A DNA stretch of 64,000 nucleotides from a phage. Below the pieces are notes generated by a model that was not told the DNA's origin, did not search any database, and saw nothing but the letters and a program-made list of their open reading frames with translations. The DNA is taken from the NCBI GenBank assembly GCA_033648345.1, contig GCA_033648345.1_4121.1; one strand, 5' to 3'. Positions 1 to 64,000 of this stretch are shown piece by piece; the first letter of the stretch is position 1; every line of letters begins with the position of its first letter. Made by a program: the position numbers and the translations under genes.

Positions 1-18
1 CAAAACAGGCAACATTCG

Positions 19-240
19 GTGGCTTGTGTAAATATGAGGACTAAACATATGTTGATTTACCAATGTGATAACATTCGTGTTATGCAGCATCCCTACTTAC
101 AAATCTTTGATGTGCAGCAGTATATGGAAGGTGATGACCCAAGAACCTATGGTCGTAAGTATGATTACTTCACTGTAAAGCAGTGTCATAACATCAAAGA
201 AGTACGACAATTAGTTCAAGAACTTCAAAATAAAGGTTGA
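19..240 (+). CDS. hypothetical protein (73 aa)
   Basis: Intact ORF; its stop codon lies inside the terminator/promoter hairpin at 235-266. Confidence 0.5.
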   Translation: MACVNMRTKHMLIYQCDNIRVMQHPYLQIFDVQQYMEGDDPRTYGRKYDYFTVKQCHNIKEVRQLVQELQNKG

Positions 241-266
241 CTTCGGTCAACCTTTTTTGTTATAAT
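235..266 (+). promoter_or_regulatory. terminator-hairpin/promoter composite (PeSL-like)
   Basis: GGTTGAC-TTCG-GTCAACC hairpin + T-tract; TTGACT in stem serves as -35, TATAAT at 261-266. Confidence 0.6.
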
Positions 267-295
267 TATTTCATCAACTACTGGGGATTTTAATT

Positions 296-736
296 ATGTA
301 CGTATATCGTTTTGAACTTAAATTCAGTTATATTGAACCTAACTTAGATCCAGCAAAAACAGTAGGGCCGTTCGCACGGTACTCTTCACGATACAGTACT
401 AAAAATGGATTTGACCGTTTGTGCATGACCACGCCTTCGCAATTCCAACCAGAACCAACTGAAGATGGAATCTATTCAATCAAACGTGGCTGGGCATTTG
501 GCTGTCAGAGTTTGAATGATTTGTTTAAGTTCTTTACTATGGACTTGGGTAAATTACATCGTGCAGGGTTTGCTGTATCAGTATATGAAGTTCCTGATAA
601 TCATGTTGACATTGGTCGTAGTCAGGTTCAGTACTATTGTGGTAGTGCCAATCTGGTTCGTATTATGTCAGTGAGAGAAGCAAAGGATGAGTACCGCCAA
701 AGTAAAAGAGTAATACATGAGGCTGTATATGGATAA
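296..736 (+). CDS. hypothetical protein (146 aa)
   Basis: ORF immediately downstream of composite promoter; GGGGA SD-like upstream. Confidence 0.6.
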   Translation: MYVYRFELKFSYIEPNLDPAKTVGPFARYSSRYSTKNGFDRLCMTTPSQFQPEPTEDGIYSIKRGWAFGCQSLNDLFKFFTMDLGKLHRAGFAVSVYEVPDNHVDIGRSQVQYYCGSANLVRIMSVREAKDEYRQSKRVIHEAVYG

Positions 737-1073
737 GACTCAAATAGAATTAAAAAAATTTGTATCGTTTTATCTACCCAATGACCCACGTTGTACACAA
801 TATGATGTTGCATATTACAATGCATTGACTACACAGTTAATGAAGAAATTCAAACAGTGTTTGACTGTATTCAATGATGATGGTAGACGTAGATATAGAA
901 TCATTCCAATGAATGATGAAAACGATAACTACTTTGACTTTGATGTTGTTTTTCGAGCATACAATGATGATAGAATAAAATTAAATTATGAGCAAATAAT
1001 GCTTGACCTGAGTGTTATCTGTGTTATAATTACTCACATAGCCGAACTTGATGGTTTAAAAGAATGGTATTGA
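729..1073 (+). CDS. hypothetical protein (114 aa)
   Basis: ORF; start moved to ATG 729 with GAGG 6 nt upstream; overlaps end of previous gene. Confidence 0.5.
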   Translation: MDKTQIELKKFVSFYLPNDPRCTQYDVAYYNALTTQLMKKFKQCLTVFNDDGRRRYRIIPMNDENDNYFDFDVVFRAYNDDRIKLNYEQIMLDLSVICVIITHIAELDGLKEWY

Positions 1074-1087
1074 CTTAGAGGATAATC

Positions 1088-1354
1088 ATGAAGCTTAAAT
1101 TACAATACAATGGTTTTACTTTGCGTAACGACACTGAGTTTGTCAATCGTTCACCAGGTGCTGAGTTGTTTTTGCGAGAGATGAACATTCCTTTCGTCAT
1201 CACTACTGTTGGTGACCGTGAAGTTCTACAATACGCAGAGCATCCAGTTATTGATGTTCCGTGGTATTCTGAGCATATGTATATGGATATGGCCCGTCGC
1301 TACGACTGTAAGTTCGTAGTTGAAGGTGATAAAATTACAGTCCAATTCAAATAA
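1088..1354 (+). CDS. hypothetical protein (88 aa)
   Basis: ORF with GAGGA SD. Confidence 0.6.
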   Translation: MKLKLQYNGFTLRNDTEFVNRSPGAELFLREMNIPFVITTVGDREVLQYAEHPVIDVPWYSEHMYMDMARRYDCKFVVEGDKITVQFK

Positions 1355-1365
1355 GGTAACTTAAA

Positions 1366-1659
1366 ATGATCAGTACTTCAGTAAATGCAAGCATCGTGGC
1401 AGACGTAGAAATGGTTAAAGAATGTACAGACGAAACCCTTCGCAACATGTACATCAACGATTTGATTTCAGAGTACGGAAGTCGTGGTGTTCATGAGTTT
1501 GTTCGCCTGAGCGGTGAATTGATGAAGAATCGCATTCGTATGAAGCTTAATGTGCATCCAAAAGCATGGGCGTTTACAATGAAGTACGCTGAAGATATTG
1601 TTGAGTTGCGTCGCAATGATGTGTATAATCGTTTACACAATGGTACATTAAAGGACTAA
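1366..1659 (+). CDS. hypothetical protein (97 aa)
   Basis: ORF with AAGGT SD; followed by hairpin terminator. Confidence 0.6.
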   Translation: MISTSVNASIVADVEMVKECTDETLRNMYINDLISEYGSRGVHEFVRLSGELMKNRIRMKLNVHPKAWAFTMKYAEDIVELRRNDVYNRLHNGTLKD

Positions 1660-1664
1660 ATTAT

Positions 1665-1692
1665 AGGAATCCGTAAAAGGATTCCTGTTCTT
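1665..1692 (+). terminator. putative rho-independent terminator
   Basis: AGGAATCC-GTAAA-AGGATTCCT hairpin followed by U-rich tract. Confidence 0.45.
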
Positions 1693-62231: not shown

Positions 62232-62254
62232 TGCATTTATATGAACAAAACATC

Positions 62255-62283
62255 TTGACATCATGCCTCACATGGGGTATGAT
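62255..62283 (+). promoter_or_regulatory. sigma70-type promoter for the GTNYQ array
   Basis: TTGACA 62255-62260, 17-nt spacer, TATGAT 62278-62283. Confidence 0.5.
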
Positions 62284-62317
62284 GTTTTTTCACATATGAA
62301 CCTATGGATTTTATCCT

Positions 62318-62515
62318 ATGCGTATTTTAACTAAAGAACAGCACCACGAAAGACTTATCAATAACATGGCTATGATAATGTATAAGTCCCATGACCGTGG
62401 TATTGCATATAAGCGTGAATTGGTTATGGCACTATTCATTGGAACTAACTTTCAGGAAAGGTATGTCAAGGATTGGATTTGGTATTTAATTGAAGATATA
62501 ACGAGTAAACTATGA
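62318..62515 (+). CDS. small protein, family G member 1 (65 aa)
   Basis: MRILTKEQ…IGTNFQERYV…L; head of overlapping-start array. Confidence 0.6.
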   Translation: MRILTKEQHHERLINNMAMIMYKSHDRGIAYKRELVMALFIGTNFQERYVKDWIWYLIEDITSKL

Positions 62516-62712
62516 AAATGCGTATTTTAAATAAAGAAGAATATCAATCACTGTTACGTAAAAACTACGTAAAGATTTACAACACAGACACACACGTAGA
62601 ACGAATGGAGTTATACCTTTTGATTACATTGGGAACAAACTATCAGGGTAGATGGGTGTGGCAATATATGGATACATTGAAAAATAAAATATTGTCCACG
62701 AGGAAACAATGA
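62512..62712 (+). CDS. small protein, family G member 2 (66 aa)
   Basis: ATGA overlap; …LGTNYQGRWV…. Confidence 0.6.
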   Translation: MKMRILNKEEYQSLLRKNYVKIYNTDTHVERMELYLLITLGTNYQGRWVWQYMDTLKNKILSTRKQ

Positions 62713-62918
62713 AAACTATAACACGAACCCAATCATTAGGTCTTATCTTGAAATACATGGACTTAATGTTGGATATCAGCAAAGACCTTCCTAAAACTGA
62801 AATCCAAGTTGCAAGAGCAGAGATCCGCATGTTAGCTGTACTGAACACAAACCATCAGGAAGAGTATGTTGACGATTGGATTCGATTTTTAATAGAAGAT
62901 ATTAAGAGTAAACTATGA
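62709..62918 (+). CDS. small protein, family G member 3 (69 aa)
   Basis: ATGA overlap; GAGGA SD; …LNTNHQEEYVDDWIRFLIEDIKSKL. Confidence 0.6.
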   Translation: MKTITRTQSLGLILKYMDLMLDISKDLPKTEIQVARAEIRMLAVLNTNHQEEYVDDWIRFLIEDIKSKL

Positions 62919-63130
62919 ATATCATTACAAACTCAAATCAATATACCGAACGCGTCGCTGCCAGACAACTTGAAATTCTCATAGTATATGAAGAGACTGA
63001 TGATTTGAACTTAGCATTAGTATTGGAAAATGATATACTATTGGGTGCATTCCTCGGCACAGATTATCAGGAGCACTTCTTGAATGAGTATATAATTGCA
63101 CTCCAGAAATACATTAAGAGCAAACTATGA
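62915..63130 (+). CDS. small protein, family G member 4 (71 aa)
   Basis: ATGA overlap; …LGTDYQEHFL…. Confidence 0.6.
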   Translation: MNIITNSNQYTERVAARQLEILIVYEETDDLNLALVLENDILLGAFLGTDYQEHFLNEYIIALQKYIKSKL

Positions 63131-63345
63131 AACATTTAAGTAACTCCGAGAAGAATAAAATTATCATTGCTGCAATAAACAAATATTTTACACTTCCTCA
63201 CACAGAAGGTTTATGTGTAAGGGAACACAGGATAAACACCACCGATATACGCATGATGGCTGTACTGGGGACGAACTTTCAGGAAGAGTATGTTGTTGCA
63301 CACATAGTTGCCCTCACTGATCTAATAAGGGACAAATGCAAATGA
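63127..63345 (+). CDS. small protein, family G member 5 (72 aa)
   Basis: ATGA overlap; …LGTNFQEEYV…. Confidence 0.6.
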   Translation: MKHLSNSEKNKIIIAAINKYFTLPHTEGLCVREHRINTTDIRMMAVLGTNFQEEYVVAHIVALTDLIRDKCK

Positions 63346-63560
63346 AAGACATAAACACTCAAGAATATCTTAAACGATTAGAACAAGGGAAGAACTTTAG
63401 ACTTCAAGTTTACGATGATGAATCACTAACATCCAATGAAAAGTATGTTATACTAACAGACTCAACATTAATACCATTTGTAGGAACAAACTATCAGGAG
63501 GTTATGGTAGACAACCACATCACGGCCTTAAAATGTCATGTCAGGGATTTAGGTAAATGA
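63336..63560 (+). CDS. small protein, family G member 6 (74 aa)
   Basis: Overlapping start; …VGTNYQEVMV…. Confidence 0.6.
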   Translation: MQMKDINTQEYLKRLEQGKNFRLQVYDDESLTSNEKYVILTDSTLIPFVGTNYQEVMVDNHITALKCHVRDLGK

Positions 63561-63814
63561 GACGCTTAACACAAGATGAATATGAAACTATAGTTCGTAA
63601 ACTAACCCCCGTCGCCAGTATAGTCTACGATGACCCCAGCCTTACATGGAACCAAATGCGAGCTAAAGTTAATGAGCTATGGTTGCTGTACTTTATGGGG
63701 ACTCAATATCAAGATAAGTTTTGCACAGAATATGTCGAACAATTAATGAATGTTATACAGGATAAACTAGATGATTATTGGCTCACAAAACATGAAGACT
63801 TTATCAGGAGTTGA
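63557..63814 (+). CDS. small protein, family G member 7 (85 aa) with C-terminal read-through extension
   Basis: …MGTQYQDKF…VIQDKL then 14 extra residues; the usual CTATGA stop/start junction reads CTAGATGA here. Confidence 0.55.
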   Translation: MRRLTQDEYETIVRKLTPVASIVYDDPSLTWNQMRAKVNELWLLYFMGTQYQDKFCTEYVEQLMNVIQDKLDDYWLTKHEDFIRS

Positions 63815-64000
63815 GTATCAAACTGCCCTATTCTCTTTAATCCATACCCTTAGAAAAAACAATGCCTTACATGGTGCACCTGAAGTGGATGTTATCAACG
63901 GTGAACTTTATCTTATGAAATTCATTGGAACAAACTATCAAGATCTGTTCATTCAACGATACTTGGCAGCATTAAGAAACCAAATCCAATATAAAACCCA
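63792..64000 (+). CDS. small protein, family G member 8 (partial, runs off window end)
   Basis: MKTLSGVEYQ…LMKFIGTNYQDLFIQRYL…; start ambiguous (ATG 63771 or 63792), overlaps member 7. Confidence 0.4.
   Translation, partial: MKTLSGVEYQTALFSLIHTLRKNNALHGAPEVDVINGELYLMKFIGTNYQDLFIQRYLAALRNQIQYKT

Follow-up and report, generated by a model that had tools for sequence, protein, structure and literature searches.

The palindromic hexamer AGTACT occurs 275 times in the 64,000-nt stretch of phage DNA analyzed here (contig GCA_033648345.1_4121.1 of GenBank assembly GCA_033648345.1, referred to below as the window), as compared to a mean of 22.3 copies (standard deviation 4.7, maximum 35) in 100 dinucleotide-preserving shuffles. 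Evidence from the window and from related genomes suggests that AGTACT is probably a word selected for recognition by a reader that is symmetric and acts on duplex DNA. Our fuller reading is tentative, and we hold it with less than even confidence: AGTACT may serve as a density-dependent tag on duplex DNA, with a symmetric reader that is probably phage-encoded, and may double as an operator pair in early promoters.

AGTACT is the top-ranking hexamer of the window and its single strong outlier, 12.8-fold over the expectations from composition and from a first-order Markov model; the hexamers ranked below it are merely its own overlapping sub-words. Markov models of order 2 and order 3 predict 48 and 102 copies, respectively, and the word exceeds the former 5.8-fold, with both models being biased upward by AGTACT itself. 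The order-4 ranking is uninformative because the 5-mers are dominated by the motif. An earlier note on this sequence had remarked on a visibly high density of the word, and the excess lies far beyond what mono- and dinucleotide frequencies predict. Chance and composition are thus rejected by both the shuffles and the Markov models. When the sites were grouped by single linkage of their flanking sequences, 185 distinct contexts were obtained, 169 of which were singletons, and one cluster comprised 72 related contexts. Repeats alone therefore do not produce the excess, and a repeat-family artefact is rejected as the full explanation.

The commonest octamer of the window is CAGTACTG, with 63 copies as compared to about one expected. 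The one-mismatch neighbours of AGTACT show no depletion, most of them being enriched 1.3- to 2.6-fold, and AGTATT and AATACT are neither depleted nor specially enriched. The signal is a short perfect palindrome that exceeds low-order models several-fold, which is also a hallmark of words like HIP1 of cyanobacteria. Gene calls were simple calls based on open reading frames (ORFs) made for this analysis, and the promoters and terminators described below are predictions. These crude calls place 182 of the 275 copies within genes (3.3 per kb), in all three frames (81/36/65), and 93 between genes or across a gene end (9.8 per kb). The proposal that the word is concentrated in regulatory elements is thus correct for density and incorrect for counts.

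Placement by megablast identified the source of the window as a Rak2-like jumbo coliphage of the 121Q/PBECO4/phAPEC6 group (Asteriusvirus), with patchwise identity of approximately 90–95% to JP4, CRJP21, fEgEco12 and others. The full record of JP4 was used as the main relative for genome-wide counts. This record contains an exact 20,114-bp tandem duplicate, which represents the direct terminal repeat (DTR) written twice; its start sequence matches window position 40317 and its end motif is found at about 61734. The DTR of fEgEco12 has 20,993 bp, as identified by PhageTerm and confirmed by restriction digests (PMC13070987). With the boundaries thus located, the window consists of three parts: about 40 kb before the right DTR, the DTR itself and 2.3 kb after the left DTR (Table 1).

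The excess extends over the whole JP4 genome, with 1,048 copies as compared to approximately 107–125 expected (8- to 10-fold over 370 kb). Each 10-kb bin contains at least 12 copies, with 3.4 expected, and the maximum of 65–71 per 10 kb is reached in the DTR. In the replication and structural genes of JP4 and of the related phage RaK2, the excess is 4- to 6-fold. The spelling of dipeptides was examined in JP4 ORFs of at least 100 aa, with expectations derived from codon usage. Ser-Thr is written AGT-ACT in 339 of 638 cases (53%), as compared to 102 expected (16%), and AGTACT is found 106 times in the X-Tyr-X frame (16 expected) and 175 times in the X-Val-Leu frame (40 expected). The dipeptides themselves are over-used (638 vs. 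440 for Ser-Thr and 620 vs. 468 for Val-Leu), whereas Thr-Ser and Leu-Val are not. Since the copies fall in all frames and the bias is seen in codon pairs and dipeptides, selection acts on the DNA word and is strong enough to shape proteins. That it fixes the spelling of half of the Ser-Thr dipeptides, and raises the frequency of both Ser-Thr and Val-Leu, is unusual for a DNA signal. Codon usage and a protein motif are both rejected as explanations, as the word occurs in non-coding DNA as well as in every frame, and it is the codon pair, not the single codon, that is biased.

The recoded fraction of Ser-Thr is 0.4–0.7 in each 25-kb bin of JP4 and thus flat along the genome, with no gradient of selection strength away from the genome ends; the gradient in AGTACT density comes mainly from non-coding DNA and the Tyr frame. 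The copies are distributed along ORFs with no strong bias towards either end. Outside the DTR of JP4 they are spaced about 400 bp apart, somewhat more evenly than random (coefficient of variation 0.87), and the longest gap is about 2 kb. The presence of the word throughout the genome in all coding frames, with synonymous and dipeptide bias, is a second feature in common with HIP1-like words.

The window and JP4 were aligned over 43 kb (89.4% identity), which included 225 aligned AGTACT sites. Of these, 191 (85%) are intact in JP4, as compared to 62% of all hexamers and 68% of the hexamers within 150 bp. The difference is seen both for coding sites (82% vs. 59% in the control) and for intergenic sites (90% vs. 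72%). Thus, AGTACT is under purifying selection between the window and JP4. At a larger distance, six orthologous genes of JP4 and RaK2 have 16 copies each and only 3 positions in common, about as many as their 72% nucleotide identity predicts. Counts are kept but positions turn over between genera, which is the pattern expected for a signal valued by its density.

Other genera were sampled over 30–50 kb each, and the host over 50 kb. The excess was 8- to 18-fold across RaK2 of Klebsiella (119 copies vs. 12 expected in 50 kb of metabolic and structural genes), GAP32 of Cronobacter (253 vs. 14), CBB of Pectobacterium (226 vs. 15) and fHe-Yen9-03 of Yersinia (57 vs. 7). No excess was observed in the samples from rV5 of E. 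coli (7 vs. 7.4), Atu_ph07 of Agrobacterium (2 vs. 3.4) and XacN1 of Xanthomonas (0 vs. 4.0), or in a 50-kb sample of E. coli K-12 (3 vs. 4.8). The phages thus have one copy per 150–400 bp, as compared to about one per 17 kb in the E. coli sample. According to the paper on CBB, RaK2, GAP32, CBB and fHe-Yen9-03 have only about one third of their proteins in common with the coliphages (PMC5259590). The excess is an old feature of the whole clade and does not depend on which enterobacterial host is infected; enrichment in five genera combined with turnover of individual copies is again found in HIP1-like words. A specifically regulatory element is not what these data describe, as the copies are mostly coding, in all frames and along ORFs, genome-wide in JP4 and clade-wide.

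A subset of the copies is nevertheless placed with precision. At least one AGTACT is found in 33 of the 48 intergenic sigma-70-like promoters predicted on the + strand of the window. With the -10 hexamer counted as positions -12 to -7, 18 promoters carry the word in register -19/-20, in the form AGTACTG-TATAAT, and 11 carry it in register -39, in the form AAAAGTAC-TTGCAA, where AGTACT abuts the -35 hexamer and the last T is common to both. Fixed positions upstream of both the -10 and the -35 boxes, as claimed in the earlier note, are thereby confirmed. Rarer registers are -41 to -43, -29/-30 and -62. Many promoters contain two copies 20–22 bp apart, around the -35 hexamer and the spacer, and this distance is the single clear peak of site-to-site distances in JP4, GAP32 and CBB. 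GAP32 and CBB have registers -19 and -39/-40 in common with the window, and the word AAAAGTACTTGC, with 13 occurrences in the window, is present in both of them too. The promoters annotated by the authors of the GAP32 genome read AAA[AGTACT]TTGACA-N10-[AGTACT]T-TATAAT, and the layout is therefore conserved in another genus. Site retention of 85% vs. 62–68%, together with fixed promoter registers that are kept into another genus, supports the suggestion that AGTACT is a shared recognition determinant.

The layout resembles that of an operator pair, with palindromes over the core promoter, two in each, about two helical turns apart. A sigma-70 core element would likewise keep a fixed distance to the -10 hexamer, as is the case for registers -19/-20 and -39/-40 in the window, GAP32 and CBB. 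However, AGTACT is neither confined to promoters, with 66% of the copies being coding, nor located at a known contact of RNA polymerase (-35, extended -10 or UP element): the TG is at -14/-13, not at -15/-14, and the word lies next to the -35 hexamer, not in its place.

Copies are also found in terminators. Within an array of RCC1-like genes (Table 1), most genes are followed by a terminator of the type CCAGTAC...GTACTGG, with GCCAGTAC-NNN-GTACTGGC stems and a T-run, that folds at -12 to -15 kcal/mol. The word had been described as occurring twice in each array terminator stem; it is present in the stems, but two perfect copies were seen in only 2 of about 10 terminators, the others having one perfect copy and a near-copy.

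Table 1. Location of features in the window; promoters and terminators are predicted.
Feature	Position	Strand	Remarks
Promoter outside the DTR	9699..9726	+	AGTACT 9714-9719 immediately 5' of TATAAT
Terminator-like hairpin AATCCAGTACTATTATAGTACTGGATT	15838..15864	both strands in scan	Two AGTACT copies; between + strand genes and - strand array
Fifteen tandem paralogous RCC1-like (beta-propeller) genes, ~260-450 aa	15869..34864	-	0-5 internal AGTACT each, 2.65 per kb
Array terminator, CCAGTAC...GTACTGG stem	17729..17747	-	One perfect AGTACT and a near-copy
Array terminator, CCAGTAC...GTACTGG stem	18936..18954	-	One perfect AGTACT and a near-copy
Array terminator, CCAGTAC...GTACTGG stem	22798..22822	-	One perfect AGTACT and a near-copy
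Intrinsic terminator GCCAGTACTCAGTACTGGC, then T-run	24052..24070	-	Two perfect AGTACT
Array terminator, CCAGTAC...GTACTGG stem	27582..27611	-	One perfect AGTACT and a near-copy
Array terminator, CCAGTAC...GTACTGG stem	31252..31270	-	One perfect AGTACT and a near-copy
Array terminator, CCAGTAC...GTACTGG stem	33670..33692	-	One perfect AGTACT and a near-copy
Families of 60-70-aa paralogous genes, immediately 5' of DTR	34901..40316	+	45 AGTACT, 8.3 per kb
DTR (~21.4 kb), small early-gene cassettes	40317..61734	+	139 AGTACT, 6.5 per kb; boundaries from JP4 and fEgEco12
Non-coding left part of DTR	40650..41950	.	AGTACT often lengthened to the 12-bp palindrome TTCAGTACTGAA or near versions
Single-site promoter, spacer register	40682..40709	+	TTGACA-N16-TATAAT; AGTACT 40697-40702 (-19)
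Single-site promoter at -35	41994..42026	+	AAAGTAC-TTGCAA-N16-TATAAT; AGTACT 41994-41999 (-39)
Two-site promoter, around -35 hexamer and spacer	45140..45172	+	AGTACT 45140-45145 and 45160-45165 (20 bp apart)
Two-site promoter CAGTACTA-TTGACA-N9-AGTACTGG-CATAAT	48243..48278	+	Sites 22 bp apart; duplicate at 48537-48572
AGTACT-free block adjoining DTR; seven tandem paralogous small ORFs	61735..64000	+	Exception to the genome-wide excess

The sequences around AGTACT contain at most about 0.3 bit of information and are mirror-symmetric, with C at -1 in 128 sites and G at +6 in 130 sites. This symmetry holds even though one strand carries 82% of the genes. In the window, the near-cognate words are likewise symmetric, and some pairs are asymmetric on the coding strand of JP4. 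The combination of a palindrome and mirror-symmetric flanks points to a two-fold-symmetric protein acting on duplex DNA, with a specificity like that of Type II enzymes. A signal at the RNA level is unlikely, as the flanks and the near-cognates are mirror-symmetric in the window despite genes that lie mostly on one strand.

From these patterns we infer that a protein reads AGTACT, that the phage encodes this protein, and what its binding would do. In the model that we favour, the word would be positively selected, its value lying in the number and even spread of the copies and in no single copy. A two-fold-symmetric protein, most probably encoded by the clade, would read it with the narrowness of a Type II restriction enzyme, and the word would thereby lend the otherwise unmodified phage DNA a sequence identity. 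Such a reader could coat, organize or shield phage DNA selectively, because AGTACT is 50–100 times denser in phage than in host DNA. At the early promoters of the DTR, the paired copies 20–22 bp apart around the -35 hexamer and the spacer may act as an operator switch: a reader bound at -19 and -39/-40 would exclude RNA polymerase, and the most likely consequence would be the shut-off of early transcription.

Several observations weigh against this model. The approximately 13 kb that follow the DTR in JP4, corresponding to 61735–64000 of the window, contain no AGTACT, and any function needed along the whole genome must tolerate this gap. For a classical repressor dimer, a 6-bp site whose flanks carry no information is short; an enzyme, such as a methyltransferase or a nuclease, would fit better. 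Searches with Pfam and PHROGs on the early DTR proteins, the proteins conserved between genera and the neighbours of the methyltransferases, a few dozen proteins in all, yielded no DNA-binding protein as a reader candidate. A search of the PDB gave no match, and a helix-turn-helix regulator of CBB has no homologue in JP4. Finally, the promoters and their transcription start sites are predicted, and the other genera are represented by the samples described above.

The avoidance of other words is relevant to how the AGTACT sites are tolerated. Neither the window (53 expected) nor 350 kb of JP4 (181–209 expected) contains a single GCGC, and none occurs in the parts sampled of RaK2, GAP32, CBB and fHe-Yen9-03. 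The controls rV5, Atu_ph07 and XacN1 do have it, as does E. coli (342 per 50 kb). JP4 has no copies of 12 six-bp palindromes with four G/C, namely the sites of XhoI, NheI, SacI, BspEI, StuI, SalI, BamHI, KpnI, PstI, SphI, MscI and NcoI, and one copy of a thirteenth (PvuII). Such loss of GCGC and of palindromes is classical restriction avoidance and fits DNA without global protection. The non-palindromic words GAGACC (BsaI/Eco31I), CTCCTC and CAGCTC also have no copies in the unique genome of JP4, and GTGCAC is over-represented 3-fold in the window.

AGTACT itself is identical to the site of ScaI and Eco255I (AGT^ACT) and has the same form of specificity. It agrees with a Type II target in being a palindrome of 4–8 bp with no flank preference. 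It departs from one in that phage genomes normally avoid Type II sites, whereas AGTACT is enriched about 10-fold, and 8- to 18-fold in the other genera. A footprint of modification or restriction in the usual sense, which the earlier note had also considered, is thus not supported: GCGC and 13 six-bp palindromes have been purged, and AGTACT goes the opposite way. The approximately 1,000 ScaI/Eco255I sites, set against the avoidance of other palindromes, imply either that the sites bring a large benefit or that they are protected.

Protection would follow if AGTACT were the target of a phage DNA-modifying enzyme, either a methyltransferase of the PF05869 family or an unrecognised enzyme, with the modified base as the functional mark. 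The mark could provide protection, a switch of promoters between parental and newly replicated DNA, or strand discrimination, and a 6-bp target would need enrichment to be spaced every few hundred bp. We consider this explanation unlikely, but it has several points in its favour. Type II methyltransferases typically recognise just such strict 6-bp palindromes, with hardly any information in the flanks, and modification would account for the tolerated ScaI/Eco255I sites in genomes from which most other GC-containing 6-bp palindromes have been purged. The positions in the -35 flank and the spacer recall those of Dam-regulated promoters. The clade also encodes two methyltransferases, a C5 enzyme and a Dam-family enzyme (PF05869), and the DNA of RaK2 is reported to be heavily methylated (PMC3622015).

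The C5 enzyme (286 aa; JP4 L001 48238–49098) can be aligned over its whole length to the catalytic domains of mammalian DNMT3A/3B/3C (E 3e-23), in keeping with the bisulfite data for RaK2, which show mCpG (PMC3622015). The same data speak against modification of AGTACT by this enzyme, which we reject as a candidate, as a DNMT3-like enzyme would target CpG and AGTACT contains no CpG. The PF05869 enzyme has 173 aa, and a PDB search returned no solved homologue; the characterised phage members of the family known to us methylate GATC. The predicted target of neither methyltransferase thus falls within AGTACT. In addition, the sites lost between the window and JP4 show no C-to-T bias of the kind expected from decay of 5-methylcytosine, and AGTATT and AATACT are not depleted, nor specially enriched. 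No cognate AGTACT methyltransferase or nuclease could be assigned in the clade from Pfam/PHROGs, the PDB or the neighbours of the methyltransferases.

A more speculative extension of our model, which we regard as rather improbable, combines AGTACT with GCGC. Rak2-like jumbo phages, the DNA of which is not hypermodified, may mark their own genome by the abundance of AGTACT and the absence of GCGC. The densities are one AGTACT every 150–400 bp (about one per 17 kb in the host) and no GCGC (about one per 150 bp in the host). A dedicated phage protein, as specific for its 6 bp as a restriction enzyme, would bind AGTACT, thereby recruiting, organizing or shielding phage DNA and setting the timing of the early promoters. 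With GCGC missing, a phage nuclease could degrade host DNA and leave the phage's own DNA intact. Self-marking in T4 or SPO1 relies on base modification, and the pair of words would be its equivalent at the sequence level.

It is improbable that AGTACT is instead a signal for replication or recombination, for example a site at which the phage DnaG-type primase prefers to start, or one at which a phage helicase-nuclease loads or pauses, for which a palindrome would be usable on either strand. Primase, helicases and recombination proteins are all among the phage's own gene products, and strand-symmetric sites about 400 bp apart, more even than random and with no long gaps, would suit repeated starts on both strands. 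The octamer CAGTACTG includes CTG, the trinucleotide of E. coli DnaG. However, the known primases, to our knowledge, read trinucleotides and not palindromic hexamers, and GTAC is barely enriched outside AGTACT (1,580 copies vs. approximately 1,200). The hypothesis also leaves the fixed promoter registers and the 20- to 22-bp pairs unexplained, and it predicts neither the peak in the terminal repeat nor the site-free block after it.

The word could also be read by a conserved enterobacterial host protein, such as a nucleoid-associated or cell-division factor that the phage recruits or titrates. In agreement with this, the excess is limited to relatives that infect Enterobacterales and is missing from the sampled jumbo phages of Agrobacterium and Xanthomonas. 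The site of SlmA, GTGAGTACTCAC, has an AGTACT core and SlmA fits the host range, but the protein requires G and T at positions 1–2 and a purine at position 3 (PMC3020112). JP4 has no full SlmA sites and 17 half-flank matches as compared to 56 expected, a roughly three-fold under-representation, and GAGTACTC is absent from the window. SlmA is excluded as the reader because the flanks that it needs are absent and under-represented around the phage copies. An SOS box read by LexA (CTG-N10-CAG) is not supported either, as TACTG-N10-CAGTA is found 0 times in the window and twice in JP4. We know of no other E. coli protein with AGTACT as its target, and we judge a host reader to be quite improbable.

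We find it very unlikely that a sequence-specific repair or conversion bias, like that of Vsr at CCWGG, has created and restored AGTACT as a non-adaptive by-product, with no function for the word. Such a process would likewise give an excess in all frames, apparent conservation and dipeptide shifts, and a similar idea has reportedly been discussed for HIP1. The one-mismatch neighbours, however, are not depleted, and the effect is far larger than known repair-driven biases. Promoter registers that are fixed across genera and terminators built from AGTACT argue for use, not drift, and a 13-kb region within the same genome is free of sites.

That AGTACT serves solely to build the promoters and terminators of mobile early-gene cassettes, and is abundant through their duplication, is extremely improbable and already contradicted as the sole explanation: the fixed registers in 33 of 48 promoters, the terminator stems, the copied cassettes evident from the cluster of 72 related contexts and the three-fold higher intergenic density agree with it, but 182 of 275 copies are coding, 169 of 275 sites have unique contexts, replication and structural genes of JP4 and RaK2 have a 4- to 6-fold excess, codon pairs are recoded genome-wide, the -35 and -10 hexamers themselves are left free by the registers, and no sigma-70 element known to us corresponds to the word.

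Among known systems, HIP1 (GCGATCGC) is the nearest phenomenon. Both are short perfect palindromes that are many-fold over-represented genome-wide, and HIP1 also occurs within genes in all frames, with a density that is kept across relatives and single copies that turn over. Unlike HIP1, AGTACT has 6 bp and an AT-rich core, belongs to a virus and not to a cell, and has fixed registers in promoters and terminators. The likeness is descriptive. HIP1 contains CGATCG and GATC, both of which are methylated (PMC6604393).

Chi, DNA uptake sequences and KOPS are likewise valued by their genome-wide density, with selection that reaches into coding sequence. They are asymmetric and read directionally on one strand, whereas AGTACT is palindromic with symmetric flanks and has no orientation, so the orientation bias of such words is not seen for AGTACT. 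Chi (GCTGGTGG) itself occurs 11 times on the + strand of the window, as compared to 0.3 expected (9219, 40905, 47405, 51899, 52408, 53360, 54608, 56965, 58562, 60141 and 60364), with ten co-oriented copies in the terminal repeat, and twice on the - strand (40893 and 47343).

TF1 of SPO1 is reportedly a phage protein that tells phage from host DNA, binds along the former with a preference for early promoters and damps early transcription. The proposed reader of AGTACT would share this logic, with the difference that TF1 recognises hydroxymethyluracil and the AGTACT reader is hypothetical. EcoRI, NsiI, SpeI and other enzymes cut fEgEco12 DNA as predicted (PMC13070987), and recognition would therefore have to rest on the sequence word, unlike in TF1. 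The DTR is long and packed with small genes, each of which combines a leader hairpin and a terminator with a strong sigma-70 promoter; in this it is similar to other early-gene cassette systems, namely the pre-early region of T5 and the promoter/stem-loop (PeSL) cassettes of T4. We know of no such system with a genome-wide palindromic word embedded in it.

Full-text literature searches, with subscription papers such as the GAP32 description outside their scope, returned no description of an excess of AGTACT or CAGTACTG in these or other phages. A term search found no mention of AGTACT or of palindromes in the phAPEC6, CBB, RaK2 and fEgEco12 genome papers. Such a highly iterated palindrome, shared by a viral clade and set in defined promoter and terminator registers, has thus apparently not been described before. 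If the proposed reader exists, it would represent a novel type of DNA-recognition protein in phages, specific for 6 bp, and our model would explain how very large phages with unmodified DNA distinguish their own DNA from that of the host and switch off their early promoters. The combination of many AGTACT and no GCGC provides a simple k-mer signature for the clade in metagenomes. Recoding or synthesis of these genomes must reckon with selection on AGTACT, and ScaI, provided that its sites carry no modification, would cut them into pieces of about 350 bp.

The local density of AGTACT is shaped in part by duplication. In the small-gene families at 34.9–40.3 kb the density is partly inflated by duplication of site-bearing units, and the site-free array at 62.3–63.8 kb consists of seven paralogous ORFs of 65–85 aa with 4-nt overlaps. 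In JP4, the site-free blocks right after the DTR are located at 162883–168041 and 170701–178961; together with the block in the window, these are the only long gaps in the tagging. No tRNA genes were found when the window was searched, and the array to which the terminators belong is thus not a tRNA array but the set of 15 RCC1-like genes.

A 2-kb non-coding stretch across the start of the terminal repeat (39980–42080) contains many short tandem repeats, including four copies of CTGGGTGG at 41147–41180, three copies of GTAATAGAGT at 40206–40235 and repeats of the GGCTAAACGGCTAGA type at 41120–41240. It is probably the genome end, or a region for packaging or replication.

The window also contains a second family of promoter cassettes, AAAGGG-TTGACT-TCGGTCAGCCCTTTTTGT-TATAAT, with no AGTACT. 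The -10 hexamers of this family are located at 261, 4509, 7272, 11635, 12179, 12519, 50547, 57828 and 60279, and a hairpin (GGGTTGAC / GTCAGCCC) that recalls the T4 PeSL cassettes spans the -35 hexamer. The first part of the early transcripts seems to be a conserved GTTTTACATC leader, after which a short GC-rich hairpin (e.g. GGGGAGAATAGTTCTCCCC) precedes the ribosome-binding site, as seen close to the promoters at 42030–42080, 45180–45215, 51110–51150 and others. One early gene in the terminal repeat (56342–56596) codes for a protein of 84 aa with a ParE-like toxin domain (Pfam PF24732, E 5e-11), and is kept in GAP32 and CBB.

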